64,000 bases of DNA from a candidate division WWE3 bacterium RAAC2_WWE3_1 (GCA_000503835.1 CP006914.1:379909-443908); one strand, 5' to 3'; shown: positions 45,529 to 64,000, numbered from the stretch's first letter. Program-made: numbers and translations. Notes: generated by a model from the sequence alone, not told the origin.

Positions 45529-46392
45529 CTATAAATCGAAGGGCGTTTCCGGTGTTTCGGTGGCCCCCGCCGGTTGTTCTACAGGTACCTCTTCGGCAGC
45601 TTCCCCCGCAGGAGCGGGAGTTTCCGTACTCTCAACTACTTCGCTTTCTGCAATATCAGGATTAAGAAATTCGTAATATCTATAATCTTTTATGCTGTTT
45701 ATAAATGCGACAAAAGCCGGGGACGTAATATCCAAGGTGATGGGGTCATCCGTTACCGCAACAGATTGAACATACATATACGGAGAATCAACATTCACGT
45801 TAACATTCACCAAACCAGTTTCCTGCGTACTGGAATCCTCACCAAATCTGAATGTGGTTACATAGGCTATTCTTGCAGATTTTTCGATTTCCTGCATAAA
45901 CACTACCATTTGGTCATAAGAACCGGTCACGGTCGCCGCAACATTAACAATACCGCTTATATCTTCCTTCCTCTGGTCAGAGATAGCATCCGCGGCAGCT
46001 CCGGTTGCCCCCGAATAGGAGTAGTTCAAACGATCGACGGACATACCGGCGTTGGTCGCGATTTGGTGTATCTGGTCAAGAAGCTGTGGGACGTTAGATT
46101 CGGAAACGTACAGCTTCTCGACAAGATCGGCATTCTCCTGCAGAACGGTATTAAAATCTTTCATTTTAGAAAGAGCCGAAGCTTTGGTATTTAACACTTC
46201 CAGCACAGCGGTCTGTGAAGTAAGCTGTGTCTTAAGTTCGTTAACCTTGGTGTAGGTAGGTTTGATATATAAAAAGAACAATAAAGCGGTAACCGCCAAA
46301 CCAATGATAGGGAAGACAAAATCCACAATAATGTCTTTTATGGCACCTATGTTTATTTCTTTTATTTTATTTTCTATGTTCTCTTCGTTCAT
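45529..46392 (-). CDS. pilO: Type IV pilus assembly protein PilO-like (with acidic/Pro-rich C-terminal tail)
   Basis: Single N-terminal TM, coiled-coil, position directly downstream of pilM-pilN. Confidence 0.6.
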   Translation of the reverse strand: MNEENIENKIKEINIGAIKDIIVDFVFPIIGLAVTALLFFLYIKPTYTKVNELKTQLTSQTAVLEVLNTKASALSKMKDFNTVLQENADLVEKLYVSESNVPQLLDQIHQIATNAGMSVDRLNYSYSGATGAAADAISDQRKEDISGIVNVAATVTGSYDQMVVFMQEIEKSARIAYVTTFRFGEDSSTQETGLVNVNVNVDSPYMYVQSVAVTDDPITLDITSPAFVAFINSIKDYRYYEFLNPDIAESEVVESTETPAPAGEAAEEVPVEQPAGATETPETPFDL

Positions 46393-46402
46393 ATTTCTTC
46401 GT

Positions 46403-46978
46403 TTACAATTTTATTTTCGACGTATCGTAGTTAACCACAATAAAAAACCTGACCGTACTTTTATTTTGATCCAGTGTCACGGAATTAAGTTTTACTTCGG
46501 TAAAAAGTTCTTTTAGTTCTGCGTCACCCCCGGGAAAATCTTTGTTTAAAAGGCTGTTTATAAAATTGGCGATCAGAATATAATTGTCGGCGTCCCCCGT
46601 GTAATTTACGATTCCGTCCTTTATATCCATGGAGTCTATTCTTACACCCTCAGGCTGTCTCACTTTCAGTTCGGCCAATAAACGGGAGTAATGCGGTCTT
46701 TCGGCAATAACTTTGGAGATAGAATTATATTTCAGGTCCAAATTTCTCACAACTATCTCGGTGGCGGAAAGAGATTTTATTTTTGCTCGCTGACTTTCAA
46801 TCTGCGAATTTACGTCGTTTACCTTCGTGGATATCTCCGAATGTGCGTAGTAAAGATATCCGGAAACGCCCAGCGCCGCAACTGTCAACAGAATAAAAAG
46901 CACCGTAGTGCCCTTAACAGCCTTGCCTTTGGCTTGATACTGTATTTCTTCCTGCGGGATAAGGTTAATATTTTCCAT
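46403..46978 (-). CDS. pilN: Type IV pilus assembly protein PilN
   Basis: N-terminal INLIPQEE motif and single TM typical of PilN; follows pilM. Confidence 0.7.
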   Translation of the reverse strand: MENINLIPQEEIQYQAKGKAVKGTTVLFILLTVAALGVSGYLYYAHSEISTKVNDVNSQIESQRAKIKSLSATEIVVRNLDLKYNSISKVIAERPHYSRLLAELKVRQPEGVRIDSMDIKDGIVNYTGDADNYILIANFINSLLNKDFPGGDAELKELFTEVKLNSVTLDQNKSTVRFFIVVNYDTSKIKL

Positions 46979-48010
46979 TTAAACCTCTCTTAGAGCCAAA
47001 CCTACGGCGGTAGAATACATCGGACCGTCCTGGCTCAGATCCTTTCTTCGTGGCTCTAACTTTTGTGAAAACTGGAAATTGGCCAGCGGATTGGCAAGTT
47101 GTACCTCAAAATCAACATTTTTTGCTACATAAGTTAAAAGTTCAGGCATTAGGGCAGTACCTCCGGTTAGTATCAACCTCTTAATGTTAGCAGAGCTATT
47201 ATGCTTTGTGAAGAATACTGTTGCTCTTTTTATCTCAAGAATCAGGTTGTCCATTATAGGTCTTATTACGTTAAATATTTTGCCCTCGGCCTGCATGGGA
47301 TCCATTCCATAAACTTTTTTGTATTCTTCAGCCTGTTGAACATCCAAGTTCAGCTCCTGCTGGATTGCCTTTGTAATTATGTCCCCTCCCACCGGAATGC
47401 TTCTGGTAAAGCGTACCGCGCCGCCGTAGGTAACGACTATTATCGATCCCGAGAATCCCAAATCCATAACTATAGTCCCGAGAGGGGCGTCGGCCGAATC
47501 TCCTAAGACCCTGCCCAAAGCAAGAGTTTCGGGTTCTATTGCGTAAGGCACGAGCTTGGCTTTTTTAGCGATGGCAACATACCTTTCTAAAACATCTTTT
47601 TTGGCGGCGACTACCTGAACATTTATTTTATCTTTTTCGGTAAGATCGGGGTCGAGTCTTTGATATGAGAGGTTTATCTGGTCAAGTGGCAGGGGAATAT
47701 ATTGCTCAGCCTCATATCTCACGGCACTTCTCAGCTCCTTATCACTCATTGCGGGCACTTTTATAACGCGCATAAATACCTGACTCTCGTCCAAACCCAT
47801 TACAACATGGGAGGTTCCGAATCCCATTTCCTTGAAAAACTCGGCTATATGCTCGGCGATCAGATCCATATCTTCTCTTTTATCGGACAAAAAGTTGACC
47901 TTGGGATTTTCGTACGTGCCTATATTGGAAATTATCAACCCTTCTTTACGTTTATCCAGTTCTACGGCTCTAAATGTACTTCTGCCAAAATTTAAACCTA
48001 CAATGGGCAT
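46979..48010 (-). CDS. pilM: Type IV pilus assembly ATPase-like protein PilM (actin-like fold)
   Basis: N-terminal IGLNFGRSTFRAVEL and actin/FtsA-like phosphate motifs (IVMDLGFSGS). Confidence 0.85.
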   Translation of the reverse strand: MPIVGLNFGRSTFRAVELDKRKEGLIISNIGTYENPKVNFLSDKREDMDLIAEHIAEFFKEMGFGTSHVVMGLDESQVFMRVIKVPAMSDKELRSAVRYEAEQYIPLPLDQINLSYQRLDPDLTEKDKINVQVVAAKKDVLERYVAIAKKAKLVPYAIEPETLALGRVLGDSADAPLGTIVMDLGFSGSIIVVTYGGAVRFTRSIPVGGDIITKAIQQELNLDVQQAEEYKKVYGMDPMQAEGKIFNVIRPIMDNLILEIKRATVFFTKHNSSANIKRLILTGGTALMPELLTYVAKNVDFEVQLANPLANFQFSQKLEPRRKDLSQDGPMYSTAVGLALREV

Positions 48011-48078: not shown

Positions 48079-48900
48079 CTAAGGTCCGTAATTGTTGGTA
48101 AGATCCGAAACTTCGCTTGTCTGAAGTAGTGCATAATCGAAGAAAGCCGGAGCCATGGCATCTGTTTTAAGAACAGTTATATGCTTCACCGTTTCTCCGG
48201 AGTAACCGTGAGCGTCCATTATTATCCCCTGCCTTGGGATCGTCTGACCAATCGCAGGTACCGCATAAACGACCGCTCTTTCGTAATAGGGTCTGATACG
48301 GATATATTTAGGCGTCACCATAGTATTTATTGTGAAACAGTTTGGGTAGCCGTGGTTGGCCACGGCAGTATCAAATCCGTTGCCGCTGTAAGGAGAAGAC
48401 ACGGAATTTACGGCATAGGAATTTATTTTTGTGACCGCACTTTCTTCGTATATATACGCCGCATGTATTGAGGACGCACTTTGCCAGCAAACATCAAGGG
48501 AGGAACCTGATGTGTACCCCTGCAAACTTATTTGACCGGCCTCTCCCGGCTCGAGGCCTAGCGAAAAAGGATCGGTGGAATTTCCGGAATACTCTAAAGT
48601 AACATTGGCGCTGATAATATTTCCGTTGGGCTCCGTTATGCTGTAGGTGCAGGCACTTCCGCAGTTCCCGAACGCTATGTATCCTTCCAATGTTTCATTT
48701 GGAACCACCAGAAGACGCTCAATTATAGCCTCTGCGGCTCTGAGAGCTTTTGTACTGTCATCTGTCCTTACAAAACCTTTAAGTGTGCTCATGAAACGGT
48801 TCGATATGGTTACCCCGATTGTCGTGGCGACTATCATTAAGAAAACCATCACTACCAGGGTTTGCCCTGTCTGGTCTTTGATTTTTGACGGAATTCTCAT
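48079..48900 (-). CDS. PilX/ComGG-like pilus-associated protein (paralog of 52832..53710)
   Basis: Degenerate pilin-like N-terminal helix GQTLVVMVFLMIVATTIGV without G/E cleavage motif; shared motifs DDSTKALRAAEAIIERLL and C-terminal APAFFDYA with paralog. Confidence 0.45.
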   Translation of the reverse strand: MRIPSKIKDQTGQTLVVMVFLMIVATTIGVTISNRFMSTLKGFVRTDDSTKALRAAEAIIERLLVVPNETLEGYIAFGNCGSACTYSITEPNGNIISANVTLEYSGNSTDPFSLGLEPGEAGQISLQGYTSGSSLDVCWQSASSIHAAYIYEESAVTKINSYAVNSVSSPYSGNGFDTAVANHGYPNCFTINTMVTPKYIRIRPYYERAVVYAVPAIGQTIPRQGIIMDAHGYSGETVKHITVLKTDAMAPAFFDYALLQTSEVSDLTNNYGP

Positions 48901-48911
48901 ATCAATATGGC

Positions 48912-49436
48912 CTAATAGCTCCTGATAGTAACCGCGTTAAGTATATCCGAATACTCGCCGCTATTTCCTGACACCGGTGCAAATCTTATGTGCATCTTCA
49001 CCGTTTGTGGGGTAGTTCCCACAACGGAGAAACATGTGCTACCTGTCAACATACAGGAAACAGCCACGCCACCGGTACCAAAGCTGCTGGTCAGGTCCAC
49101 GGCGGCTGCACCGGTGGGGTTTTCTACCTGCAACTTATTTCCATTAAGTTTATAGGTGACGCTAGCACTTCCTTCTTTTGAAATAGTGAGAGTATTGGTG
49201 TATCCTACTGAGGTAATGCCCGTAGCGCTGCGTAACTCACGTTCAATCTTTAGTCCCACAAAATTTGCCTGCTGTTCAACTTCATTTTTTATCTGAGTCT
49301 TATTGTAACTGCGAACAAGGGAAACCAGTATATCGTTCGTCACCCCAATGGATATTCCCAAAAGAGCAATAACTACCAACAACTCCACAAGGGTAAATCC
49401 TTTATTTTCTTTTTCCAAAGTTGCCCTGATTTTCAT
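48912..49436 (-). CDS. Minor (pseudo)pilin, prepilin-type N-terminal methylation domain
   Basis: KGFTLVELLVVIALLGI class III signal; start at internal Met (ATGA overlap with upstream gene). Confidence 0.7.
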   Translation of the reverse strand: MKIRATLEKENKGFTLVELLVVIALLGISIGVTNDILVSLVRSYNKTQIKNEVEQQANFVGLKIERELRSATGITSVGYTNTLTISKEGSASVTYKLNGNKLQVENPTGAAAVDLTSSFGTGGVAVSCMLTGSTCFSVVGTTPQTVKMHIRFAPVSGNSGEYSDILNAVTIRSY

Positions 49437-49915
49437 TTTTGTTGCCAATTCGTAAAATCGGTATATACAAATGTTTCTTTGTTCTGACCGCCGACACTCC
49501 ACGCAGACTGCACTGTGACCTGGATGGCCGTGCTAACGGGCGCGGCGTAAAAACGTGTGAGGATGGGTGTGCCCCCGGCGGCTGTCGGTACACTTCCGGC
49601 TTTTACAACTAACGGATCCGCATTAATATCTATATAACACCCGCCCAACGCCGGCGTACATCCGGATGTCGTACTAACAAAAGTTGCCCAGCTGGTTGCT
49701 GATTGATCCCTGTAAGCCCGGACTAACTCCATTTGTGTATTGGCAGCTTTTGTACCTTCCATCAATAAAGTACTCTGCAACGATGTCCTTAACGAAAACA
49801 GGGTGAGGGAGAGTAGAGAAGTAATTACCACAACCGAAATACCCAACGCCGCTATTACTTCCACAAGTCCTATCCCTTTTTGTTCTTTCAAAAAATTTTT
49901 TAAAGTTTGCCGCAT
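49433..49915 (-). CDS. Minor (pseudo)pilin
   Basis: KGIGLVEVIAALGISVVV prepilin-like N-terminus (Glu5 present). Confidence 0.65.
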   Translation of the reverse strand: MRQTLKNFLKEQKGIGLVEVIAALGISVVVITSLLSLTLFSLRTSLQSTLLMEGTKAANTQMELVRAYRDQSATSWATFVSTTSGCTPALGGCYIDINADPLVVKAGSVPTAAGGTPILTRFYAAPVSTAIQVTVQSAWSVGGQNKETFVYTDFTNWQQK

Positions 49916-49920: not shown

Positions 49921-50469
49921 CTAATTTGAATTGAATATCAACCCGGCTTTATTAATTAGTATGTTTTTGACTGTTGCTGTATCCGACGAATGCCGAAGGC
50001 TTATAGTGGTATCCGGTATAGGAACAGTTAATCCGGTAGTAGCATTTCTCTCAAAAACCGAACCGTCTTCTAAACTGAATAGGAGACAATGTGCGCCGGA
50101 TGAAACAATCGAAATGCCGGACGAAAGTGTTACTGTCTGCTGGAGTGTTGCGTTAACAGTACAGCTGTTGGAAGCAGTTAAGTAAAAGCTGTATGTTCCA
50201 TTAGAACCTGCTACGTCGGAATATAGAACAGCCCAATAAAGAGCGGGGTTGCCGTTTATCAAAGTGTCTGCCCCTGTTCCCGTCAGCGCCCTATTTTGTG
50301 CACTCCTCAAGTCGCTTTTCAAATTTTCCTGCGCCTGCTTTAAAGTTTGGTTTCTGGTGTAACCGGAAAAAGAGGGAATCATTATCCCTGAAACTACCGC
50401 AAGAATACCTACAACAATCATTAACTCCACCAATGTAAATCCTTTACTAGCCGAGCGGGGCAGTTTCAT
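49921..50469 (-). CDS. Minor (pseudo)pilin (GspH/FimT-like)
   Basis: KGFTLVELMIVVGILAVV class III signal. Confidence 0.7.
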   Translation of the reverse strand: MKLPRSASKGFTLVELMIVVGILAVVSGIMIPSFSGYTRNQTLKQAQENLKSDLRSAQNRALTGTGADTLINGNPALYWAVLYSDVAGSNGTYSFYLTASNSCTVNATLQQTVTLSSGISIVSSGAHCLLFSLEDGSVFERNATTGLTVPIPDTTISLRHSSDTATVKNILINKAGLIFNSN

Positions 50470-50490: not shown

Positions 50491-50982
50491 TTATGGTGTA
50501 ATCAGCAGTAAGTTGACGCCCATCTCATATTTTGCGGGATCGTTGCCGCCGTCGGAAGAAGCTTCCTCGGTTAATTGCTCTAAACGGGTGCTGATCTCGT
50601 AGCCTGCAGTGTTGTGGATATACTCATAATGGTATGTCGTATCATTTATAGGATCGGTGGGATATTTTGATATGTAATCGGAGAGATCTACCGGAATCCA
50701 ACCCGCCACAGCCGAGTATATATTCGGCGATCCTGTGGGAACTATATCGCTCGTGTACAAAAAACTTTCCTGCCCGGGATATTGACCGTAATCAAGTTTG
50801 TATTCATTAACGGCCCTGTCTAAAGTTGAGACGTCTGATAATCTTTTGTTATCACGGGCTTTGCCTTTTGAAGAAGCCGGGGATATAAGTGAAATGACGG
50901 TACCCATGAGTACCAGTAAGACTGCCGTAACGATGGCTATCTCCAGAAGAGTGAATGCGTTTGTATCAACGAACCTTTTCAT
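50491..50982 (-). CDS. Type IV pilin / GspG-like pseudopilin
   Basis: NAFTLLEIAIVTAVLLVL (Ala at -1) followed by GspG-type KARDNKRLSD. Confidence 0.65.
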   Translation of the reverse strand: MKRFVDTNAFTLLEIAIVTAVLLVLMGTVISLISPASSKGKARDNKRLSDVSTLDRAVNEYKLDYGQYPGQESFLYTSDIVPTGSPNIYSAVAGWIPVDLSDYISKYPTDPINDTTYHYEYIHNTAGYEISTRLEQLTEEASSDGGNDPAKYEMGVNLLLITP

Positions 50983-50984: not shown

Positions 50985-51512
50985 TTAAAAAGGGTTTTGG
51001 ACGGCGTAACAGTTAGTATTGGTACCACAATTACACCATGACGCAAAAGTACAGGCAGAAACAGCACTGCATCTTGAAGTGATGGATGCATCTATTTCCA
51101 TACGGGCTATTAAAGCATATCTCGAGGCAGTTGCTCTATAACTGTAGCCATAGGCAGCATCTGCGCAACCCGCAAAAACATCGGTACCCTGAGACGGGTC
51201 CACAGGTAATTGACTTATATAACTTGTAGGGGATATGAGAGCTCCTAAACCTGTGGTTGCATTATTGACACTTGCCGAAACGAAGGCTGCACTTGGGACC
51301 GGATAACTACGTTTGTCCGTAAAATATAACTCTAAGGCTGTTTGTATCCTTTTTAAATCAGATACCCTCTGCGAGTCACGGGACTTCTGCCTGACACCCT
51401 GAACATTTATTGCATTTAAAACAACACCACTTAGAATACCTATTACGCTTATAACTATTAGAAGCTCTATTAAGGTGAATCCTAAATTGGTTTTTTTGTT
51501 TTTAAAATTCAT
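50985..51512 (-). CDS. Type IV pilin / GspG-like
   Basis: LGFTLIELLIVISVIGILSG ... KSRDSQRVSDL. Confidence 0.75.
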   Translation of the reverse strand: MNFKNKKTNLGFTLIELLIVISVIGILSGVVLNAINVQGVRQKSRDSQRVSDLKRIQTALELYFTDKRSYPVPSAAFVSASVNNATTGLGALISPTSYISQLPVDPSQGTDVFAGCADAAYGYSYRATASRYALIARMEIDASITSRCSAVSACTFASWCNCGTNTNCYAVQNPF

Positions 51513-51524: not shown

Positions 51525-52067
51525 TTAAAGACAAGACGCCCCTGTCGAAGCCAGGTTACATACCTGTCCCCCCGCACCAAGGTCATTTCCAGTTGCAGAA
51601 CCGTTGCAGGTAGCTGCGATCGGACAATCCAATACAACCCCGCCACACTCAGGTTTGCCGCCGGTATACGAAGCGTTATGGGGAGACACAAATTTGTAAA
51701 GCCTGCTCTGTGAATTTAAAACGCCCACGCAGAAGAAATTTATATTACCCTCCGTCATCGTATAGTAAACATACTGAGAACCGGGCCAGGAGTTTAGATA
51801 AGTCGACAGCATAGGATTGACAAGAACATTTGTATCAGGAACACCCGCACTACTGACGGGATACTTACCCTCACCGGCATAGTAAGCTTCGATTGCGGCA
51901 GCAACATTCTGTAAGTTCGATATCTTTACACCATCCTGAGCCCTTTCCCTTTGTTTTGTAGGATTTATAACTGCCACAGTTATACCAGCCAATATCCCTA
52001 TAATAGAAATTACTAAGAGTAATTCAACTAAAGTGAGTCCCTGATTTTTATAATTGTAATTTTTCAC
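51525..52067 (-). CDS. Type IV pilin / GspG-like
   Basis: QGLTLVELLLVISIIGILAG ... RERAQDGVKISNL. Confidence 0.75.
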   Translation of the reverse strand: MKNYNYKNQGLTLVELLLVISIIGILAGITVAVINPTKQRERAQDGVKISNLQNVAAAIEAYYAGEGKYPVSSAGVPDTNVLVNPMLSTYLNSWPGSQYVYYTMTEGNINFFCVGVLNSQSRLYKFVSPHNASYTGGKPECGGVVLDCPIAATCNGSATGNDLGAGGQVCNLASTGASCL

Positions 52068-52121
52068 GATATTTTAAAAACTTACCGGGCTCAATAAAGA
52101 GCCCGGAAGTATATAACCTAA

Positions 52122-52685
52122 CTAAGGCGTCACACAGTTCGCGGGAGGCGATGCGGTATCACAATGCTGGATTTGTCCTGCTGCAGTACCATTGTTCATG
52201 TATCTGAACACAGTAGTTCCGGCACCAAACGATTTAGCGTAAATCGTAAAATTGGGGCTCGAGGCGGTCCCCATGTAGCGGTACAAACACGTGTTACCGG
52301 AACCCGGAGCTGTTGAACCCGTGTACCCGTTCACCGCACCGCAAGTATCTGGTAGTTGATTTCCCGTAACAATAAAGTCACAAGTGTAATCCGCACCACC
52401 GGCAGCACAGCTGGCATTAGGCGAAGAGGCTGAGGCCGAAAGTCCGGAAATAAACTGTACATCGTTAGGAGAGTTACCATACGCTGAAATATACCCCTGC
52501 GTAGCAAGAGCCACTTTGTTTATTGTAGCCTTAACATTGGCATCCCTGGCCTTACTTTGTTGGGCTTGGGGATCTATAACAGCAATCAAAACACCGGCTA
52601 AAATACCGATGATAACGATAACCAATAAAAGCTCGATAAGTGTAAAACCCGAAGCAGAAATCATTCTCTTTCTCAATTCTTTCAT
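52122..52685 (-). CDS. Type IV pilin / GspG-like
   Basis: SGFTLIELLLVIVIIGILAG ... KARDANVKATIN. Confidence 0.75.
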   Translation of the reverse strand: MKELRKRMISASGFTLIELLLVIVIIGILAGVLIAVIDPQAQQSKARDANVKATINKVALATQGYISAYGNSPNDVQFISGLSASASSPNASCAAGGADYTCDFIVTGNQLPDTCGAVNGYTGSTAPGSGNTCLYRYMGTASSPNFTIYAKSFGAGTTVFRYMNNGTAAGQIQHCDTASPPANCVTP

Positions 52686-52831
52686 CTGCTTCTCACCCCC
52701 CTCCTTCTATCTAATCCAATTCCAGATTTTAAAATTAACTTGGGCAGTTTATACATCTCTTCTTAAATTATGACTTCGCCCATAATGAGTGTCAATACGA
52801 TTCCGCCTTTATCGGGCAGGCTTTGAATAAA

Positions 52832-53710
52832 CTAGGGCACATCGTTGTTCGAAAATATTGCGTAGTCAAAAAATGCAGGGGCTGTATTGTAAGATCTGTA
52901 GACCACGATTGCCTTTGTGGTTTTAATGTCTCCATCCTGAACAAGCTCTCCCCTTGAATACAATCTGTACCCCTGAGCCGGTAGAGAAGAGGGGCTCACG
53001 GGGACGACTGCAACTTTTGAACCCTGAAAGATACTCCTGACTCTGAGCCCGGTCATGCCTGTAACCGACACATTGTGACAATAGGGAAGGGGATACCCCT
53101 CGCGGATAGCCTCGCCTTTGGCATCCGTAAAACCGGTTGAGGATATGTCGGTGCTAAAAACCAAATTTCCCGAAGCTTTTAAAAAATTTCGGGTCGTCGT
53201 AACCGGTCCGTACAAAATATATTCTATTGCGGAGCTGCTATTCTGCCAGCACAGTCTTATCGAGTTCATGCCGGTCAACTCGATATTCTTGGTCTGACCT
53301 GACGGAATATCGGTTTCGTAGTATGCGGTGCTACCCATAATATCCGTGTGGCTGAAAGTTTTAGCGCTCAACACCGCTCTTGACTCAGCGTTGTCGGACA
53401 CGGCTTTTTGATAATTCAGGACACATCTGGTTGTATCGCCGGGGATTGAAGAAAAACCCATTTCCTGACAATTTGGGTTTTTAGCTGAAAGCCTGTCTAA
53501 AAGCTGTTCGGACTGCGCAAGTAGTCTGTCTATACCGCCTTCGGCGGCAGCGAACACTCTGGCGGATGTGTCAGACCTGGAGACCCGTGAAGACACCTGC
53601 AGCGTTCGACTGCTCACTGCAACTCCCACGGACAGAGCTATGGTCATCGCAACAACAACGAATAATAGAGCCTGACCATTGTTATTTAATTTCCTAAATT
53701 GTCCTTTCAT
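52832..53710 (-). CDS. PilX/ComGG-like pilus-associated protein (paralog of 48079..48900)
   Basis: GQALLFVVVAMTIALSVGV N-helix, DTSARVFAAAEGGIDRLL, C-terminal APAFFDYAIF; start at internal Met overlapping upstream stop. Confidence 0.45.
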   Translation of the reverse strand: MKGQFRKLNNNGQALLFVVVAMTIALSVGVAVSSRTLQVSSRVSRSDTSARVFAAAEGGIDRLLAQSEQLLDRLSAKNPNCQEMGFSSIPGDTTRCVLNYQKAVSDNAESRAVLSAKTFSHTDIMGSTAYYETDIPSGQTKNIELTGMNSIRLCWQNSSSAIEYILYGPVTTTRNFLKASGNLVFSTDISSTGFTDAKGEAIREGYPLPYCHNVSVTGMTGLRVRSIFQGSKVAVVPVSPSSLPAQGYRLYSRGELVQDGDIKTTKAIVVYRSYNTAPAFFDYAIFSNNDVP

Positions 53711-53711
53711 A

Positions 53712-55850: not shown

Positions 55851-56377
55851 GGCCGTTCTTTCACAATGATACAGTCCGGTCCAAGAATACTGCAATCATC
55901 ATTCTTACATTTTGTAAACACCATATCTCCGACTATAGCTGTCTTCATAAAATCAAATCCGGAAGATATAAATATCTGGTTTATATTTGTAAATGCTGCA
56001 GTTCTGTCGGAAGAACATTCAAAAGACCGGTCCGACTTGATTCCTGAATCCGTAACGGTAACTCGGCCTGTGTTTAAATCCAAAATATTATCTATAACAA
56101 AAAGCTTGTAGTTATTAAAAATTTCTGCCCGTTTCTCAGGATTGCTGTTGTAATCACTAAATTCTTCAGACCCTTTGTTTTGCTTGTTTACACCGGGATA
56201 CCGCCCGACATTGGGATCTACCACATACGACTCGTCAAAATATATGGAAAATCGGGAATCTTCCCGGGTCCCGGCACTTTTTCGGACAAGGCTGTTCTCA
56301 AAGAAACGGCTCACAAAATACATTCCCAAGCCTATGAGAATCAAAATCATGAGCAGCAAGATCTTTTCTCTCTTCAC
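55847..56377 (-). CDS. Membrane-anchored hypothetical protein
   Basis: N-terminal TM KILLLMILILIGLGMYFV, 176 aa. Confidence 0.5.
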   Translation of the reverse strand: MKREKILLLMILILIGLGMYFVSRFFENSLVRKSAGTREDSRFSIYFDESYVVDPNVGRYPGVNKQNKGSEEFSDYNSNPEKRAEIFNNYKLFVIDNILDLNTGRVTVTDSGIKSDRSFECSSDRTAAFTNINQIFISSGFDFMKTAIVGDMVFTKCKNDDCSILGPDCIIVKERP

Positions 56378-56476
56378 TAGTTAATTATATGAAGATTATC
56401 AAGGTTAGGTCAATGAAAAAGAAGGGGGTCGGTTAAAGTTACATTTAAACCGACCCTTAAGTAAAAGTTCCTTAAA

Positions 56477-57238
56477 CTACTTGTGACTTTCTACCCAACC
56501 GGGAAAGATATCGGGGCGGGACAGGATGAGCGAATACTCTTCCGCGGTAACCGGTATGATCTTCAGAGGATCGGGCGGTAAATCATCCGGAAAATTAAGC
56601 CCGTATTCCGAAGCCACGTTCTGCATGAACTTTGTTTCGTGCACCCACTCCCAAACAGAAGTCGGGTTGTACACCGACCAGTTAACGTCCGGGTCTATGA
56701 ACGGGCCGTTGTACGGGTAGAGCATGTATGCGTAGGACGTAGACACGTTTGAACCCTTTGCAAATTTATAGAAATTTGCAAGAAACAAGTAGTTACCGGG
56801 GGTTACGGTTCTCTTAGGCTGGTAAATTCCGATAACACATGAATCGGGTTTGTTTACAACAGCGTTCGCCACACCGTTCAAGCCGTTCCCGCAGACGGAG
56901 GTCTCGTAGTTCCATCCCAGGTTTATCCGCAAAAACTCGAGCTGTGAACCGTAAAATGTATACCCACTTAGCGGTGTAGCAGACAGTACCGGAGTCCGGG
57001 TTGCTGTCGATGTGGCGGTACTGGAAGGAACTGGTGTACTTGAGGGAACCTGCGTACCCGTCGGAACCGGAGTAAATTCTATCGTATTTGTTGCACTAGC
57101 AACTAAAGTCACACCCGTGACCTCTACAGCTTCCGGCTTCGGAAGAGTCCCCGATATCCCCGACCACGCTACCACACCAATGACTACAGCAACGAGCAAA
57201 ACAGCAACTCCAACCGGAAAGAACCGTTTTTTGTCCAT
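56477..57238 (-). CDS. Secreted/membrane-anchored protein with Thr/Pro/Ser-rich linker
   Basis: N-terminal anchor FFPVGVAVLLVAVVIGVVAW followed by low-complexity TPVPSSTPVPSSTATSTATRTPV. Confidence 0.5.
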   Translation of the reverse strand: MDKKRFFPVGVAVLLVAVVIGVVAWSGISGTLPKPEAVEVTGVTLVASATNTIEFTPVPTGTQVPSSTPVPSSTATSTATRTPVLSATPLSGYTFYGSQLEFLRINLGWNYETSVCGNGLNGVANAVVNKPDSCVIGIYQPKRTVTPGNYLFLANFYKFAKGSNVSTSYAYMLYPYNGPFIDPDVNWSVYNPTSVWEWVHETKFMQNVASEYGLNFPDDLPPDPLKIIPVTAEEYSLILSRPDIFPGWVESHK

Positions 57239-57392
57239 CTCCTCGCCTCCTTTTCTCTCTCAGATTATTTGACTTTATTTGGGATAATTGCTCTTAAAGA
57301 CTAACTGCAAAATAGCATAAAAAGGCCTGCGGTACAACTTAAGGCACATTAATTGAAAATACCGGTCGAGCAAAACGGAGTCTTATTTTAGA

Positions 57393-57776
57393 TTAAACGC
57401 CCGAAAACCTTCCCACTTCCTCAACAACCTTATCGGGATTCACTTCGGATTTTATCAGGTAGCCGTCGGCGCCAAGCTTAAAAGCTTCCTGAATAATGTG
57501 CTCACTGTTCAGGTTGGTAAGAACAACCACAGGGCCTTTTTTCAACTCCGGTGTTTCCTTAAGGTCCTTCAATATCTTAAGACCGTCCTTACCCGGAAGC
57601 ATTATATCCAGGAGCAGTATGCTCCAGTCGGAATTTTTAATCTTGTCTCCTCCAATCTCCCCGTTAGGAGCTTGGTCAACCACATAACCCGCATTTTGCA
57701 GGACTTCCGCATAGATGGTTCTAATATCCTGCTCGTCCTCAATTATTAGTACTTTGTTTTTTGTTTTATCAGGCAT
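57393..57776 (-). CDS. Stand-alone response regulator receiver (CheY-like)
   Basis: KVLIIEDE...LLLDIMLPGKDG (phospho-acceptor Asp), T and K positions conserved (LTNL ... K). Confidence 0.8.
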   Translation of the reverse strand: MPDKTKNKVLIIEDEQDIRTIYAEVLQNAGYVVDQAPNGEIGGDKIKNSDWSILLLDIMLPGKDGLKILKDLKETPELKKGPVVVLTNLNSEHIIQEAFKLGADGYLIKSEVNPDKVVEEVGRFSGV

Positions 57777-57837: not shown

Positions 57838-59232
57838 ATGCCCGATAGAATAGTAGAGATAAAAGAGAGTGAAATATTCAAACTCATTGATAAGAACCGT
57901 GCGCTTGACGCCACATATAAATTAGTCGAAACAATTTTAGAGACCACTGAATTTGACGAACTCACACAAAAAATAGCCGACATAATACCTAACGCCCTCG
58001 GATATGAATTGGGGATTCTGGCGTTGATAGACCATAAAAGTAACGTCCTAAGAAAAATCTCTCTCTCAAAGGGCATGGGGGACACAGAAAAACAGGTGCA
58101 ATTAGAGGAATTTTTCGGAGAGCTGACGATACCTTTCGGCTACGCGGACAACATTTGTATACAATCTATAGAAACCAAAAAACAGGTGGTCAGTCCTTAC
58201 ATATGGGATGTTTTCAAACCGACTTTAACCAGACAACAGGCAGAAAGCATCCAGGAAATAACAGGAACAAGATCACATATTGTAACCCCGCTGTTCTCGC
58301 ATGATAGGGTTATCGGTGCAATCATAGTAAGCCTCGCCAAAGAGGTTGATAAAGTAACTGATTTCGAAAAAGAAATGCTGAAAAAATTCTCCGAAAGTGC
58401 GGGTGTCGCAGTAGAGAACTCAAAACTTTACACAAACCTAAAAAGGGCCAAAGAAGATTTGCACAAAGCGTACGAAAATATGAAAGTGTTAAACACCCTG
58501 AAAGATGAGTTTCTCTCCGTGGCTTCTCATGAACTTAGAACTCCCATGACAATAGTAAAAAGCTATCTTTGGATGCTGGAAAAACAAAAAGCCGGAAAAT
58601 TGAACCAAAAACAACTTGAATATCTTAATAAAGCTTTGGTAGGTACCCAGAGAATGATTTCCCTTATAAACGATATGCTGGACATTTCCAAGTTCGAGAG
58701 GAAGAAGGTTTCGTTCTCTATTACTCAAATCAACCTTGTCAATGTCATTAAAGACGTACTCTCTAACTTTGACGTCAGGGTAGGGGAGAAGGGTTTAAAG
58801 TTAGAATTCAATTCTCCGACGGATGAGGTTCTGGTCGACGCTGATCCTGAAAAGCTGAGAGATGTGTTCACAAATCTGGTGGAAAACGCAGTGAAGTTCA
58901 CGAAGGAAGGTACCATATCCATATCGATAGAGGAGTACGAAGAGTTTTACAGAATTTCCATAAAGGACACCGGGGCGGGTGTGGACAAAAAAGACCTTCC
59001 CAAGCTTTTCCATAAGTTCGGGAGGATAGACAACAGCTACACTATCGCCACCGATTCGGGAGGCACGGGCCTGGGATTGTACATTGTAAAGCTCTACATT
59101 CACGGTATGGGTGGGATGGTAGGAGCCGATTCAGAAGGTATCGGAATGGGAAGCACTTTTTGGATTACTCTTCCGAAAAACAAAATTAAAAAGTTCGGTG
59201 TCAGTTTAAGACAGGTTGAGATACCAGTTTAA
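57838..59232 (+). CDS. Cytoplasmic sensor histidine kinase with GAF domain
   Basis: H-box FLSVASHELRTPM; HATPase N (LVENAVKFT), G1 DTGAGV, G2 GGTGLGLYIVK; no TM helices; 3' end overlaps pilD by 27 nt. Confidence 0.85.
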   Translation: MPDRIVEIKESEIFKLIDKNRALDATYKLVETILETTEFDELTQKIADIIPNALGYELGILALIDHKSNVLRKISLSKGMGDTEKQVQLEEFFGELTIPFGYADNICIQSIETKKQVVSPYIWDVFKPTLTRQQAESIQEITGTRSHIVTPLFSHDRVIGAIIVSLAKEVDKVTDFEKEMLKKFSESAGVAVENSKLYTNLKRAKEDLHKAYENMKVLNTLKDEFLSVASHELRTPMTIVKSYLWMLEKQKAGKLNQKQLEYLNKALVGTQRMISLINDMLDISKFERKKVSFSITQINLVNVIKDVLSNFDVRVGEKGLKLEFNSPTDEVLVDADPEKLRDVFTNLVENAVKFTKEGTISISIEEYEEFYRISIKDTGAGVDKKDLPKLFHKFGRIDNSYTIATDSGGTGLGLYIVKLYIHGMGGMVGADSEGIGMGSTFWITLPKNKIKKFGVSLRQVEIPV

Positions 59233-60096
59233 TATTTCAATACCCCAGACAAAAGCAACCAGACTTCCCAGAATCAGGAACGGGCCGAACGGTACAACAC
59301 TTTTTAGTGTTTTTTTGCGGGACAGAACAAGCCCGATACTTACAACCGCTCCTATAAAAAATCCCAGAAATACTGCTAACAAATTGTACGGAAAACCATT
59401 CACCAGTCCGACAAGTAACCCAAGCCTTATGTCTCCGCCACCCATACCTCTTCCGCGCGTTACCCAAACAATAAAGAAAAAGAATAAGGCGATAGCTATA
59501 GCAGAAACAAAATTAAAACCGAGAGAACGCACCGCTGTCTCAACCTGACTCTCAAAAAATCCTGCTTTTAACAGATAGCGCCCGAAGTCATCATTCTGCA
59601 GTCTGTCTCGATACTCGTACAGATTGATTACCGTTGTTGATAAATTAAAAAGCGCAACAAAAATTATGGCGGGAACTACTATTTTATCGGGAACAAGTAA
59701 ATATTTAAGATCCGTGAGCAATAGAATCTCAAAAAATGAAAATACTACGGCCAAAAAGAGAAACCCTACTAAAGTAGAGACGGAAAAGGGTTCGAAAAAA
59801 GAAAACTTTGACAGAGTCGCGGCAAGAACCAAAAACAGCCCGGCGAGTACTTCGGAAAAAGGGTGGTACCACGAAAGACCGGTCTTACAATACGAACACT
59901 TTCCTTTCTGCACCAAGAATGAAATAACCGGAATAAGGTTGAGGGGTTTTAATTCCTCTCCGCACTTATCGCATTTCGAATGATCGGCGACGATTTTTCC
60001 GCCCTTTACAACACGGTCCGAAACAAGATTTAAAAAAGAACCCAGAGCGGTTCCGAAAATAAAAATAAGACCAAGATTGATATAACTTAACACCAT
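59206..60096 (-). CDS. pilD: Prepilin peptidase (A24 family)
   Basis: N-terminal CxxC...CxxC Zn motif (CDKCGEEL...CSYCKTGL), catalytic Asp-containing helices, 8 TM. Confidence 0.85.
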   Translation of the reverse strand: MVLSYINLGLIFIFGTALGSFLNLVSDRVVKGGKIVADHSKCDKCGEELKPLNLIPVISFLVQKGKCSYCKTGLSWYHPFSEVLAGLFLVLAATLSKFSFFEPFSVSTLVGFLFLAVVFSFFEILLLTDLKYLLVPDKIVVPAIIFVALFNLSTTVINLYEYRDRLQNDDFGRYLLKAGFFESQVETAVRSLGFNFVSAIAIALFFFFIVWVTRGRGMGGGDIRLGLLVGLVNGFPYNLLAVFLGFFIGAVVSIGLVLSRKKTLKSVVPFGPFLILGSLVAFVWGIEILNWYLNLS

Positions 60097-60129: not shown

Positions 60130-60156
60130 CAACAAAAAAGGCCCCCGTTAGAGAGC
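60130..60156 (-). terminator. Possible intrinsic terminator/attenuator after major pilin gene (minus strand)
   Basis: Minus-strand GGCTC-tctaacg-GGGGCC followed by TTTTTTGTTG between pilin stop and pilD start. Confidence 0.4.
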
Positions 60157-60182
60157 CTTTCTCGCTGATTGCCGGCAACCAA

Positions 60183-60695
60183 CTAAGGAAGTATCAAAAG
60201 ACTTGTACCAGCTTCATATGCTGCTGCATTATTTCCTCCGTCCGTAGTCATCTTCGCTGTGTTGTCCGCGTGTTCTAGCACAACATTGACCTCGAAATCA
60301 GTTGCTGTGGATCCGAATGTGTATACGTGCGTGCCCACTGCAGATACTGTGCCGTTAATAGGATCTATCGGCAAAACAGGAACGAACTTCGAAAGCCCTG
60401 TCTTTCCTGTCGGGATCGAGAACTTTACCCAACCCGTACCGTCCAGACCTCTGTTCGTTTCGGTACTTGTACAGCTCGCGCAGACACCTGTCGGACTGAG
60501 AGTAATCTCAGTATCGGTAAGAGCCAAGTTAATAGCTTTGGTTAATGAGTCAATGTCGGACAGTCTTTTCGCATCTCTTGATTTCTGGATCATCGACTGA
60601 GGATTAATAGCAACTAACAGAGCACCTGCTAAGATACCTACGATGGCAATAACCACCAAAAGCTCGACTAATGTAAAACCTTTTTGTTTTCTCAT
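60183..60695 (-). CDS. pilA: Type IV major pilin candidate (PilA/GspG-like)
   Basis: KGFTLVELLVVIAIVGILAGALLVAI class III signal, SRDAKRLSDI; positioned between pilC and pilD. Confidence 0.8.
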   Translation of the reverse strand: MRKQKGFTLVELLVVIAIVGILAGALLVAINPQSMIQKSRDAKRLSDIDSLTKAINLALTDTEITLSPTGVCASCTSTETNRGLDGTGWVKFSIPTGKTGLSKFVPVLPIDPINGTVSAVGTHVYTFGSTATDFEVNVVLEHADNTAKMTTDGGNNAAAYEAGTSLLILP

Positions 60696-60740
60696 AGTAG
60701 TTCTATCTTTTTCACCTCCTCGCTCAATAAAATCTTTTAA

Positions 60741-61943
60741 CTAGATTGACTGTGTAATTTTGTAAATAGGTGTAATGATCGAGATGATTAAAAATCCTAC
60801 CATAACACCCAATATAATGAGTATGATAGGTTCGAGCGCGGCTGACAAGCCTTTTACTTTATTATCCACTTCGCCCTCATAATATATGGCAACACGATCC
60901 AGTACCTCATCCATCTTTCCTGTTTCTTCCCCGACATTTGCCATTTGCGAGAGAAGGGGAGGGAATTGTTCTGAAGATTTAAAAAAGCTGGAGAGTGATG
61001 TTCCTTTTTCAACCTGTCTTGCCGCGTTCAGCACGGCCATTCTGAATGTGGGGCTGGACATGACGGTCGAAACTATTCCCAGTGCCTCAACTATAGGGAC
61101 TGCCGAGTTTATGAGCAAGGCCAGGGTTTTGCTGAATTGCGCAAAATCCTTGTCCTTGTTTATTTTCCCAAAAACAGGGAGCCTCATTGTTACTTCCGCG
61201 ATATAATATTTCCCTTTGTCACTTTTTGCGTAATACCTGATCGCAAGCACCAGCGCGGCGGCAATGATGGATATCACAACTATATTTTTGACCATAAAAT
61301 CCGAGGTTGAGATCATCACGCGCGTCACTATAGGAAGCTCGACATCCATACTTTTGTACATGTCCGCAAGTTTGGGGACGACAAAAACCATAAGTACCAC
61401 GAATACACCGATCATTGCTATCATGACAACAATGGGATATATCATCGCACCTTTGAACCTGGAATTCAGATCCCTCTGGGCTTCCATATTGTCAGCCAAT
61501 CTTTTTAAAATAATATCCATTTTGCCTGAAGATTCTCCGGCTTTCACAAGTGCCTGATAAGTAACCGAAAATACTTCCGGGTATCTTCCGAGTGCCGTAG
61601 AAAGCGAGGCGCCCCCTTCAACATTTCTTAGAATATCGTAGATGATCTTTTTAAAATTCTGGCTTTGAGTTTGAGCGGCCAGCACTTCCAGGGCACGGGA
61701 AATAGGCAGTCCTGCCGAAATCATGGTAGAAAACTGTCTCGTAAATGTGACAACATCCCCTTGGGAAACTCCGCGAAAATTCAAAAACGTATCGAAAATG
61801 GTTTCTCTCTTCTCCTGGATGGAAATAACATACATCCCCTGGCCTTTTAACAAGGACACCGCAAGATCTTTGGTCCGTGCGTCGACAGATCCGCCGACCG
61901 TCTTTCCTGCCATGTTCTTAGCTGTATACGTGTATATCGCCAT
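60741..61943 (-). CDS. pilC: Type IV pilus inner-membrane platform protein PilC (GspF family)
   Basis: Two GspF repeats, 400 aa, three TM segments; downstream of pilT. Confidence 0.9.
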   Translation of the reverse strand: MAIYTYTAKNMAGKTVGGSVDARTKDLAVSLLKGQGMYVISIQEKRETIFDTFLNFRGVSQGDVVTFTRQFSTMISAGLPISRALEVLAAQTQSQNFKKIIYDILRNVEGGASLSTALGRYPEVFSVTYQALVKAGESSGKMDIILKRLADNMEAQRDLNSRFKGAMIYPIVVMIAMIGVFVVLMVFVVPKLADMYKSMDVELPIVTRVMISTSDFMVKNIVVISIIAAALVLAIRYYAKSDKGKYYIAEVTMRLPVFGKINKDKDFAQFSKTLALLINSAVPIVEALGIVSTVMSSPTFRMAVLNAARQVEKGTSLSSFFKSSEQFPPLLSQMANVGEETGKMDEVLDRVAIYYEGEVDNKVKGLSAALEPIILIILGVMVGFLIISIITPIYKITQSI

Positions 61944-61945
61944 AC

Positions 61946-63019
61946 CTATTTCACCATTTTAGAATCTATTAAGCGTCTAAAATCTTCGGGTCTTAAGGTG
62001 TACTTTATACCTTCCTGGAAATCGACAAGTCCGTTATTCACCAGATAAGCTATTGATCTGTCTAAACTCACCATTCCCACCTGAGAACTGGTATTAATGA
62101 CGTTGTCTATCATGTGAGCTTTACCTTCGCGGATCAAATTCTTCACGGCGTCACTTCCCAGCATTATTTCCACGGCCGGGACTACACCTTTAGTGGGGGA
62201 GGGTATTAATCTTTGTGAAATGACTACTTCCAGCACTTGCGATAGCTGAACCCTTACTTCATTCTGCTTTTCCGAAGGGAAGGACGAAACTATTCTTTCG
62301 ACGGTCTGCGAAGCAGAATTGGTGTGTAAGGTGGCAAAAACCAAATGTCCTGTTTCGGCAATTTCCAGCGCGGAAGAGATTGTTTCCGAATCCCTCATTT
62401 CACCGACGAGAATGACATTGGGATCCTGTCGGAGCATGGATTTTAAGGCAACGGTCCAGTCGTGTGTGTCCAGAAACATTTCTCTTTGCTCAACTAAAGA
62501 TTTTTTATTGGCGAAAATGTATTCGATAGGGTCTTCGACCGTCAGTATGTGCTCGGGACGGTCTTCGTTTATTTTATCTATCATCGATGCTATGGTGGTC
62601 GATTTACCGTGACCGGTAGGTCCCACGACCAATATCAACCCCGACTTTATCCTGCATAGATTCACCAAGTAAGGAGGAAGGTTTAGGGCCTCAAGGGAGG
62701 GTATCGACATAGGTATGTGACGTAGAGCCGCCGAAGGGTATCCTTTTTGAAAAAACGCGTTGACCCTAAACCTGGCCTTGCCACCGAGCGCAACCGAAAA
62801 ATCCAGCTCTTTATTAACTTCCAGTACTTCTCTTTGCTGAGTGTCCAGTATTTGTGAGAGGAAGTATTCGACGTCATCGACCGTAAGTACATCAAAATCT
62901 TCGAGCGTGGAAAGGACGGTCTTGATCCTAACATAAGGCTTACTTCCCACAGAAACGTGCAGATCCGACGCATTCAGCGAAACGACCCTTTCTAATAGTT
63001 GTGTTGCATTAAGTTTCAT
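61946..63019 (-). CDS. pilT: Twitching-motility retraction ATPase PilT
   Basis: Walker A GPTGHGKSTT, Asp box, Walker B ILVGEMRD, His box, 357 aa without N-terminal extension. Confidence 0.9.
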   Translation of the reverse strand: MKLNATQLLERVVSLNASDLHVSVGSKPYVRIKTVLSTLEDFDVLTVDDVEYFLSQILDTQQREVLEVNKELDFSVALGGKARFRVNAFFQKGYPSAALRHIPMSIPSLEALNLPPYLVNLCRIKSGLILVVGPTGHGKSTTIASMIDKINEDRPEHILTVEDPIEYIFANKKSLVEQREMFLDTHDWTVALKSMLRQDPNVILVGEMRDSETISSALEIAETGHLVFATLHTNSASQTVERIVSSFPSEKQNEVRVQLSQVLEVVISQRLIPSPTKGVVPAVEIMLGSDAVKNLIREGKAHMIDNVINTSSQVGMVSLDRSIAYLVNNGLVDFQEGIKYTLRPEDFRRLIDSKMVK

Positions 63020-63043
63020 AATTTTATCCTCTCCTTATCTTAT

Positions 63044-64000
63044 TTACTTGGCGACCCTCAATACCTCTTCGAGCGTTGTCATACCTTCAACAATGCGAAG
63101 GTAACCGTCCTGAAGCAAGGTCAACATGCCAAGTTTTACCGCAGTTTCGTGAATCTTGCTTGATGGGGCGTTCTCAAGGATAAGGTGTGATATTTCTTCG
63201 GACATGTAGAGAAGTTCAAAAATTCCCAGTCGTCCTCTGTAACCGACGTTGCCGCATTTCGGACAACCTTTTCCGCGCCATAACATGAGTTTTTCTTTAC
63301 CGCTCACATTTTTCAAGATCTTTGAAATCTCAGGGTCTCTGGCTAATAACACTTTGTTCTCAGCAACTTCCGCCATTATTTTCTTTACACTTTCCTGTAC
63401 CTCTTCGGGAGGTTCGTATTCTTCTTTGCAGTCCACACAAATCTTTCGGACCAATCGTTGGGCAAGAATGGCATTAACAGTAGAGGCAAGTAAGAAATTC
63501 TCGACTCCCATGTCAAGCAGCCTGGGCAACGCACCTGCCGCTGAATTGGTGTGAAGAGTAGACAGGACCAAGTGTCCTGTAAGAGCGGCATGAACCGCGA
63601 GCTCTGCCGTATCTCCGTCGCGTATCTCACCGACCATGATAATGTTGGGGTCCTGTCTTAAAAATGATCTCAACCCGTCGGCAAAATTTAACCCCGCCTG
63701 AGGATTGACTTGTACCTGATTTACCCCCGGCACCCGTATTTCTACCGGGTCTTCCAGTGTGACGATGTTAACGCGAATAGTGTTCAATTTACTCAAAGCG
63801 GACGCCAAAGTTACGGTTTTCCCTGAACCTGTAGGACCTGTTACCAGAAGCATTCCGTTCGGCTTTAATGAAGCCTCTTCAAATCTTTTTAAAGTAGAAC
63901 CGCGCATACCGAGGTCGCGGAATGAAAAAACCGTACCTTCTTCTTTGAGCAACCTGATAACAACTTTTTCACCGTAAATAGTGGGCAGGGTAGAGATTCT
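63044..64000 (-). CDS. pilB: Type IV pilus assembly ATPase PilB/GspE (5'-truncated by window edge)
   Basis: Walker A GPTGSGKTVT, Walker B IMVGEIRD, tetracysteine CVDC...CPKC; reading frame stays open to position 64000 (…RISTLPTIYGEKVVIRLLKEEG…). Confidence 0.85.
   Translation of the reverse strand, partial: RISTLPTIYGEKVVIRLLKEEGTVFSFRDLGMRGSTLKRFEEASLKPNGMLLVTGPTGSGKTVTLASALSKLNTIRVNIVTLEDPVEIRVPGVNQVQVNPQAGLNFADGLRSFLRQDPNIIMVGEIRDGDTAELAVHAALTGHLVLSTLHTNSAAGALPRLLDMGVENFLLASTVNAILAQRLVRKICVDCKEEYEPPEEVQESVKKIMAEVAENKVLLARDPEISKILKNVSGKEKLMLWRGKGCPKCGNVGYRGRLGIFELLYMSEEISHLILENAPSSKIHETAVKLGMLTLLQDGYLRIVEGMTTLEEVLRVAK

Follow-up and report, generated by a model that had tools for sequence, protein, structure and literature searches.

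Fixed machinery and variable modules in a WWE3 type IV pilus locus

Type IV pili (T4P) are the best-supported tool with which bacteria of the candidate phyla radiation (CPR) find and hold their hosts, and WWE3 (Katanobacteria), a CPR lineage, has to our knowledge no cultured member. The type IVa pili (T4aP) of Gram-negative bacteria such as Pseudomonas and Myxococcus are characterized by a FimU–PilVWX–PilY1 priming complex, pilA allele groups, the PilS–PilR pair and an INLLP motif in PilN. Across the CPR, PilB, PilT, PilC, PilD, PilM, PilN, PilO and pilins co-localise without PilQ, which is absent across these bacteria, and a monoderm-type envelope has been reported for them generally (Méheust et al. 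2019, PMC6744442). Saccharibacteria have two T4P systems. T4P-2 mediates host binding. The T4P-1 pilin genes that were targeted, pilA1, pilV1 and pilW1, could not be deleted, suggesting essentiality, and PilX1, a large minor pilin, combines a jelly-roll domain with a signal that is non-canonical (PMC11623550). The closed genome of the candidate division WWE3 bacterium RAAC2_WWE3_1 (878,109 bp, 874 genes, GC 0.43) encodes T4P components including pilT and several pilins, together with ComEC, DprA and a sparse metabolism (Kantor et al. 2013, PMC3812714). Here we analyse the T4P locus at positions 45529–64000 of a 64,000-nucleotide (nt) stretch of this genome (the window). We read it, with a probability of roughly 85%, as the main T4P locus of this CPR bacterium: T4a-like, retractile and secretin-less, with pilin170 as the major subunit, a core priming block and a variable specificity slot.

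Such a system is of a known kind, and the genome that carries it has been published; the value added here is a map of the fixed and variable modules of the locus and an unannotated family of jelly-roll pilins. Like T4P-1 of the saccharibacterium TM7x (Nanosynbacter lyticus) and CPR T4P in general, it gathers PilB, PilT, PilC, PilD, PilM–PilN–PilO and several pilins in one locus without a secretin; a reduced genome and a large jelly-roll minor pilin without a canonical PilD site, likened by the descriptions of fold and signal, are further points in common with TM7x. Unlike T4P-1, it has ten pilin-type genes rather than five, two jelly-roll PilX-like paralogs, an embedded kinase–regulator pair and a species-variable cassette of exported proteins. 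With Gram-negative T4aP it shares short-leader pilins, the antagonistic PilB and PilT, a PilN motif (INLIP) matching INLLP, four or five minor pilins grouped in one block, a gene for a large non-pilin protein next to that of a PilX-type pilin, and strain-level replacement of the major-pilin allele. It differs from them in having no PilP, PilQ, TsaP or FimV at the locus, in combining a soluble GAF kinase with a CheY-like protein in place of the membrane PilS and the sigma-54-dependent PilR, and in that the large protein, p712, has no detectable PilY1 domain. The GspG–H–I–J–K pseudopilus of the type II secretion system (T2SS) resembles it in its GspG-like pilins (T2SSG matches) and in a tip-position pilin without Glu5, whereas PilT and PilMNO are present here and GspC, GspD, GspL and GspM are not.

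Locus architecture and assembly machinery

The locus is densely coded, lies nearly entirely on the minus strand and comprises 22 genes (Table 1). Their transcription order is pilB–pilT–pilC–pilin170–pilD, the kinase, the response regulator, p253–p176–p712–X1, pilins 187, 180, 175, 163, 182, 160 and 174, then X2–pilM–pilN–pilO. The seven-pilin run (187, 180, 175, 163, 182, 160 and 174 residues) extends from 52685 down to 48912 and pilM–pilN–pilO from 48010 down to 45529, with trmD next on the opposite strand. An earlier interpretation made from the DNA alone (the sequence-only reading) had proposed this locus, and all the genes that it named were found where it had placed them. Its all-minus-strand order holds for most genes, but the histidine kinase is encoded on the plus strand; and the locus that it called complete is cut at the window end, 64000, where pilB is short of ~270 residues at its N-terminal end, the MshEN domain among them. 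On the source contig pilB is complete (587 residues, MshEN N-domain), giving a full locus of ~19.3 kb, about 2% of the 878-kb genome. Beyond pilB, the source contigs carry holB, gyrB, an H+-PPase gene and gyrA, and housekeeping genes form both borders.

Contigs from JGI (513 kb) and NCBI (GCA_003449455.1, 226 kb) match the window at 100% identity over the locus parts fetched, and a contig from ENA (134 kb) has 2 mismatches in 21,032 bases. Because these three independent assemblies agree at 99.99–100% and pilB is whole on the longer contigs, the locus is no assembly artefact; a chimera or assembly join, which the sequence-only reading had named as a possible objection, is ruled out. X1 is 100% identical to AHB40391.1 of RAAC2_WWE3_1 and the base composition of the window is in line with the GC content of that genome, which confirms the reduced genome supposed earlier. 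The exact PilT, PilM, PilD, regulator and pilin187 proteins each occur in 107–142 blocks of a public collection. At such identity among the JGI, NCBI and ENA recoveries, either the population looks remarkably clonal or one site has been sampled repeatedly.

Nine related loci came from a pattern scan in which an alignment of the PilX-like proteins was run against GTDB representative genomes; eight are labelled WWE3 or Patescibacteria, and the ninth is a 2-kb fragment labelled Saccharibacteria. Eight of the nine were mapped by tblastn and blastn. A fixed frame recurs in the eight: pilB–pilT–pilC–pilin170–pilD–kinase–regulator, a variable slot, pilins 175, 163, 182, 160 and 174 with X2 and pilMNO, and trmD. 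Machinery proteins are 85–99% identical in the six closer WWE3 species.

Protein families were assigned by scoring Pfam and NCBIfam models against each model's own cut-off. The components expected of a T4a-like pilus without a secretin are present: an extension ATPase, PilT, PilC, PilD, PilM–PilN–PilO and short-leader pilins. The PilB fragment scores 389 bits with TIGR02538 and 395 bits with TIGR02533 and has the Walker A, Asp box, Walker B, His box and CxxC...CxxC motifs, and PilT contains AVKNLIRE, Walker A and B, and the Asp and His boxes. Both the extension and the retraction ATPase, as asserted beforehand, are therefore encoded, with their motifs present. PilC scores 362 bits with the NCBIfam GspF model and 324 bits with the PilC model, both under the equivalog cut-offs. 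PilD, with seven transmembrane (TM)-like windows, retains both catalytic Asp motifs and the four-cysteine site (CDKC...CSYC, DLKYLLVPD and GMGGGDIR). PilB, PilC and PilM–PilN–PilO make up the assembly machinery, and PilT accounts for retraction.

We found no match to a secretin or to PilP among the window's open reading frames (ORFs) of at least 150 residues or among the called genes in the 10 kb beyond pilB; the PilQ secretin and PilP required by diderm T4aP are thus lacking in the window and this flank. The missing pilQ agrees with a monoderm envelope, as the sequence-only reading had said it would. PilO ends (45529–45680) in a ~45-residue acidic tail rich in Pro, Glu and Thr (…ESEVVESTETPAPAGEAAEEVPVEQPAGATETPETPFDL), which could replace the PilP/PilQ contacts by spanning the cell wall.

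The embedded regulatory pair belongs to the fixed part of the locus. The kinase is 87–94% identical in six WWE3 species and keeps its position in all of them; the response regulator, 89–99% identical across species, is among the best-conserved genes of the locus. The pair has no DNA-binding output; the soluble GAF kinase and the CheY-like regulator would most likely tune the motor post-translationally, through protein–protein contact. The kinase gene converges on pilD with a 27-nt overlap at 59206–59232, and an overlap of ~20 nt is retained in relatives (~21 nt in locus L006, ~18 nt in L007 and L010).

Pilins, jelly-roll paralogs and the candidate major subunit

Alignment and a motif scan identified eight ORFs with a canonical class III signal, [G/A]↓[F/L/I]xLxE (↓, cleavage site), behind leaders of 6–14 residues. 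Gly or Ala at −1 (Ala in pilin163) and Glu5 are present in all eight, the PilD-site features that the sequence-only reading had asked to be checked, and PilD would cleave the short leaders of these prepilins. Together with two PilX-like proteins that lack Glu5, the pilin-type genes number ten; the sequence-only reading had counted nine, and its own list adds up to eight. A six-frame motif scan of the 64 kb found no ORF with a class III signal outside the T4P locus. Pilins 170, 163 and 175 are paralogous over their full length (E 1e-13 to 1e-21; pilin163 and pilin170 share 30% identity, E 5e-21), whereas pilins 187 and 180 resemble other pilins over the N-terminal ~60–70 residues only. The four tandem GspG/PilA-like paralogs proposed previously accordingly hold for 163 and 175 (with 170), but not for 187 and 180.

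Judged from its sequence and context, pilin170 is likely the major filament subunit, because it adjoins pilC and pilD, is followed by the strongest terminator-like hairpin of the locus and is the sole gene replaced between strains. It is 74–81% identical in the six closer species. In a divergent strain (ENA contig ERZ27254730; L018), a 9.45-kb alignment to the window contains 112 differences, all of them in ~60200–60899, a segment made up of pilin170 (169 residues, 85% amino acid identity), the spacer and the last PilC residues. The other ~8.7 kb are identical to the window, including pilin187 and pilin180 at 100%. Among the 24 contigs read with pilD, 23 carry the 170-residue allele and one the 169-residue allele. 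Such localized allelic replacement is expected of a surface-exposed major subunit and supports pilin170 in this role. The variant contig (L018, 1–800) stops at the variable pilin170 segment, which suggests that strain heterogeneity breaks assemblies there.

Pilins 182, 160 and 174 and the Glu5-less X2 form a conserved block beside pilM in all relatives. Identities in the six closer species are 45–87% for pilins 163, 182, 160, 174 and X2 (46–87% for pilin163 in relatives); pilin182 was found in all eight relatives compared, and Gly −1 and Glu5 of pilin160 are invariant in nine orthologs. The GTG at 49502 given by the ORF lister for pilin174 is too far upstream; the true start shares a 4-nt ATGA overlap with pilin160. 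By analogy with GspH–I–J–K or FimU–PilVWX, pilins 163–182–160–174–X2, encoded directly upstream of pilMNO, would form the priming or tip complex, in which the jelly-roll pilin X2 would occupy the GspK/PilX position. We rejected naming individual pilins GspH, GspI or GspJ by sequence: profiles built from ortholog alignments gave N-terminal helix matches or noise against all PDB sequences, those of pilins 160 and 174 hitting solved pilins over this helix alone.

X1 and X2 are paralogs (27% identity, E 7e-20) that the sequence-only reading had placed together. Their genes instead sit apart, on opposite sides of the pilin array (52832–53710 and 48079–48900), X1 before the tandem pilins and X2 after the minor pilins, and X2 adjoins pilM in every related locus. 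Neither protein matches a Pfam or NCBIfam family, and one source annotates X1 as containing a 'PilX N-terminal domain'. An exhaustive profile search of this PilX-like family returned 2374 clusters (50% identity) at E<=1e-3 and 1557 at 1e-10. Most hits are nameless; all members bearing an organism name are labelled WWE3, with one further named match (ACD_22C...) given as 'uncultured bacterium'. In their pilin helix, non-canonical signal and modelled jelly-roll domain, these proteins answer to the description of the saccharibacterial PilX1-like proteins. The lack of Glu5 and the location at the end of the minor-pilin block are traits of GspK/PilX-type tip subunits, which we would treat as shared traits rather than homology. 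The 2-kb fragment labelled 'Candidatus Saccharibacteria' (L014, CAZHRD010000108.1) carries X2–pilM–pilN in the WWE3 arrangement at 36–47% identity; either it is mis-binned or the PilX-like family reaches beyond WWE3.

Variable slot and accessory cassette

The slot between the response regulator and pilin163 would carry the outward-facing specificity elements, namely pilin187, pilins 180 and 175 and the p253–p176–p712–X1 cassette. It contains two to four pilins depending on the species. Orthologs of pilin187 align over residues 1–61/63 only in five of the eight relatives, pilin180 is missing in five of eight, and pilin175 evolves fast (42–58% amino acid identity in the six closer species). From ~52576 to 51007, covering the pilin187 C-domain, pilin180 and most of pilin175, there is no nucleotide similarity in any relative mapped. 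In one relative (L012), a tandem pilin at 5617–6561 is modular, with Big_2 Ig-like domains, and the next ORF (6605–7111) has Big_2 domains and no N_methyl match.

Pilin187 is probably expressed independently, as its DNA context indicates, because it has its own promoter-like site, leader and GC-rich hairpin. The −35 TTGAC and the Shine–Dalgarno block are invariant in seven species, and the leader ends in an invariant AGGAGGGGGGTGAGAAGCAG before the ATG. The protein has the highest Gly+Ala+Ser+Thr content of all the pilins (42%) and six cysteines, and could be a second abundant subunit. In its leader (52686–52766, minus strand), a conserved CUGCC(C/U) is able to base-pair with the Shine–Dalgarno block at its invariant GGGGGG; this could be an anti-Shine–Dalgarno hairpin, with a weak predicted energy (−5.3 kcal/mol) and no covariation, because both sides are invariant.

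The accessory cassette (57372..52817) is a clean 4.56-kb insertion/deletion among WWE3 species. It is present in L008, L009, L011 and, diverged, in L012; it is replaced by ~64 nt in L006, missing from L007 too, and reduced to a C-terminal remnant of X1 in L010. From this pattern of presence and absence we conclude that the cassette is old and has been lost repeatedly. p253 occurs only where the cassette occurs, and p253, p176 and p712 match no Pfam or NCBIfam family. The 4-nt overlap between the p176 stop and the p712 start and the 1-nt gap between p712 and X1 suggest that p176, p712 and X1 are translationally coupled.

The five p712 homologs found are, where named, all WWE3, and across five orthologs the C-terminal regions are 49–53% invariant, as against 22–23% in the middle. 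In L012, a distant relative, a 1256-residue ORF (44–3814) lies directly upstream of the X1 ortholog and has only its last ~125 residues and one middle domain in common with p712. It contains a CBM60 carbohydrate-binding module (32.1 bits; cut-off 28.2) and begins with a Hint/intein-like module (29.3 bits, just below the cut-off of 29.7); this ORF may start upstream of the stretch fetched. Because a conserved C-terminal module is found beside a PilX-like pilin while the remainder is variable and once lectin-like, we propose an arrangement that is PilY1-like in function, in which p712 would be a tip partner or adhesin riding on X1 as PilY1 rides on minor pilins. Searches of p712 with Pfam and NCBIfam detected no PilY1 C-terminal beta-propeller domain.

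Table 1 Features of the T4P locus, in window coordinates
Feature	Coordinates	Strand	Remarks
pilO	45529..46392	−	PilO 33.6 bits (cut-off 22)
pilN	46403..46978	−	PilN 23.7 bits (cut-off 22.8); N-terminal INLIP motif
pilM	46979..48010	−	PilM_2 191 bits (cut-off 27)
X2 (PilX-like 2)	48079..48900	−	273 residues; G↓QTLVV, no Glu5; long N-terminal helix and jelly-roll domain (modelled); 4 conserved Cys
pilin174	48912..49436	−	Conserved minor pilin; true start is the ATG at 49436
pilin160	49433..49915	−	Conserved minor pilin; G↓IGLVE; N_methyl 14.8 bits, under cut-off
pilin182	49921..50469	−	Conserved minor pilin; N_methyl 31 bits
pilin163	50491..50982	−	A↓FTLLE; T2SSG 25.6 bits (cut-off 21)
pilin175	50985..51512	−	GspG-like; N_methyl 30 bits; T2SSG 17.5 bits, under cut-off
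pilin180	51525..52067	−	Class III signal, G↓LTLVE
Hairpin after pilin187	52085..52106	−	GC-rich, terminator-like; 8 pairs, 7 G–C
pilin187	52122..52685	−	First tandem pilin; N_methyl 25 bits
Promoter-like site and leader	52686..52795	−	Ahead of pilin187 ATG; TTGACA-17-CATAAT (52795..52767) and ~80-nt leader
X1 (PilX-like 1)	52832..53710	−	292 residues; G↓QALLF, no Glu5; last gene of accessory cassette
p712	53712..55850	−	Sec-signal protein; 24 Cys, 17 in residues 38–161
p176	55847..56377	−	Accessory cassette; 167–176 residues by start chosen; N-terminal TM anchor
Promoter-like site	56413..56384	−	TTGACC-18-TATAAT, ahead of p176
p253	56477..57238	−	Membrane-anchored exported protein; one N-terminal TM-like window; Thr/Ser/Pro-rich linker
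Response regulator	57393..57776	−	CheY-like, receiver only, 127 residues; Response_reg 84 bits, without output domain
Histidine kinase	57838..59232	+	Soluble, GAF-HisKA-HATPase_c (Pfam); no TM-like segment
pilD	59206..60096	−	Prepilin peptidase, 296 residues; A24_N_bact 86 bits (cut-off 23), Peptidase_A24 33 bits (cut-off 26.5)
Hairpin after pilin170	60130..60167	−	Terminator-like, with T-run; 17-pair stem, strongest such site in locus
pilin170	60183..60695	−	Leader MRKQKG↓FTLVE; N_methyl 43 bits
pilC	60741..61943	−	Platform protein, 400 residues; two T2SSF domains, 211 bits (cut-off 25.2)
pilT	61946..63019	−	Retraction ATPase, 357 residues; TIGR01420 (PilT/PilU) 423 bits (cut-off 319)
pilB	63044..64000	−	Extension ATPase, C-terminal 318 residues in window; T2SSE 341 bits (cut-off 24.9)

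Alternative readings and implications

Several findings weigh against the T4a-like locus as we read it. The absence of a secretin applies to the 64-kb window and the 10-kb flank rather than to the whole genome. Pilin187, with its conserved promoter-like site, strong ribosome-binding site, terminator-like hairpin and highest small-residue content, is a competing candidate for the major pilin, and the pilin170 allele difference is known from a single divergent contig. Profile searches link pilins 182, 160 and 174 to no GspH, GspI or GspJ family, with matches confined to the N-terminal helix. The AlphaFold2 model of p712, made from five sequences, is unusable (predicted local distance difference test (pLDDT) 41.8), so that gene order and the conservation pattern are what speak for a PilY1-like role.

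The sequence-only reading saw antigenic or functional variation in the diverged C-terminal regions of the tandem pilins. The C-domains of pilins 187, 180 and 175 are indeed mutually unrelated and are unalignable or missing between species, as might be expected if they were swapped or switched within a population, and the only repeats found, conserved N-terminal pilin coding segments of 61–75% identity, could in principle support recombination. However, the repeat search revealed no silent copies of pilin genes and no partial copies lacking a promoter; invertible segments and long near-identical repeats were likewise absent. Exact pilin187 is nearly as widespread (116 collection blocks) as PilT (127) and PilM (118), its neighbouring proteins are mostly the same in all 24 pilin187-bearing contigs read, the L018 sequence is unchanged (100% identity) across pilin187 and pilin180, and the single strain-level difference falls in pilin170. 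Within-species invariance and the lack of silent copies contradict an antigenic or phase variation system, which we consider very improbable. What survives of the earlier claim is the hypervariability or absence of these C-domains between species; strain variation resides in pilin170.

The main job of the pilus could be to take up DNA, as ComG pseudopili and the competence pili of Vibrio do, in place of attachment or motility. ComEC and DprA are reported in the RAAC2 genome, whose metabolism is sparse (PMC3812714), T4P genes and competence genes are enriched together across the CPR (PMC6744442), and DNA-uptake pili need PilT-driven retraction. Yet comEA, comEC and dprA are absent from the window, and TM7x T4P-2 pilin mutants keep normal competence (PMC11623550). 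PilMNO, PilT, ten pilin-type genes and a variable cassette that is CBM-linked in a relative are not features of a Com operon. A ComG identity was rejected, as ComGA, ComGB, ComGC, ComGD and ComGE all scored under their cut-offs, the first three also under the PilB, PilC and GspG models, and PilT and PilMNO are present. A primary competence function is thus unlikely, although competence and attachment roles are compatible and do not exclude each other. Scarcely credible is a T2SS-like pseudopilus that exports proteins and builds no surface pilus. Two pilins match T2SSG, one of them above the cut-off, the best score of PilC is with GspF and that of the PilB fragment, by a narrow margin, with GspE, and the large Glu5-less pilin is like GspK in that single trait; all GspE and GspF equivalog scores nevertheless fall under their cut-offs. 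The presence of PilT, above its family cut-off, and of PilM_2, PilN and PilO, with GspC, GspD, GspL and GspM absent from the window (T2SSL and T2SSM matches are sub-threshold), contradicts this identity; moreover, pili are visible on CPR cells by microscopy and related saccharibacterial loci make filaments (PMC6744442, PMC11623550). A Tad/Flp (type IVc) identity was also rejected, with sub-threshold Flp matches on one pilin (13–15 bits against 32–33) and no Tad components.

The retractile T4a-like pilus that we favour would serve to attach to a host cell or surface and pull on it, and perhaps to capture DNA, a role carried over from experiments on Saccharibacteria. By the same analogy, it is reasonable to suppose that the cell depends on its pili to attach to hosts or take up DNA, as the sequence-only reading suggested. 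The parts that vary, within the species the pilin170 allele and between species the cassette of exported proteins together with pilins 187, 180 and 175, probably indicate which subunits face outside; set against the fixed machinery, regulators and core minor pilins, they offer targets for expression, imaging and host-range studies.

A more specific arrangement is conceivable, though we think it doubtful: one PilBTC–MNO machine with two alternative priming or tip modules built on the Glu5-less jelly-roll paralogs, a fixed core (182, 160, 174 and X2) and a swappable X1 cassette with a large, fast-evolving Cys-rich or carbohydrate-binding protein, the cassette being gained, lost and remodelled between WWE3 species. 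If so, host or surface specificity would be set by the cassette along with the hypervariable, separately promoted pilin187; in this unculturable symbiont lineage they would make up a host-range determinant both compact and modular, and the jelly-roll pilins would be a large unannotated family, with the 2374 clusters noted above.

An Rfam search of the window matched three tRNAs and nothing else. Outside the T4P locus, seven ORFs of 190–665 residues (56–2053, 3643–4659, 9794–10645, 12285–13085, 13152–13724, 14100–14720 and 24684–25571) matched no Pfam model at the thresholds applied, and a small VWA-domain protein is encoded at 17585–18340.

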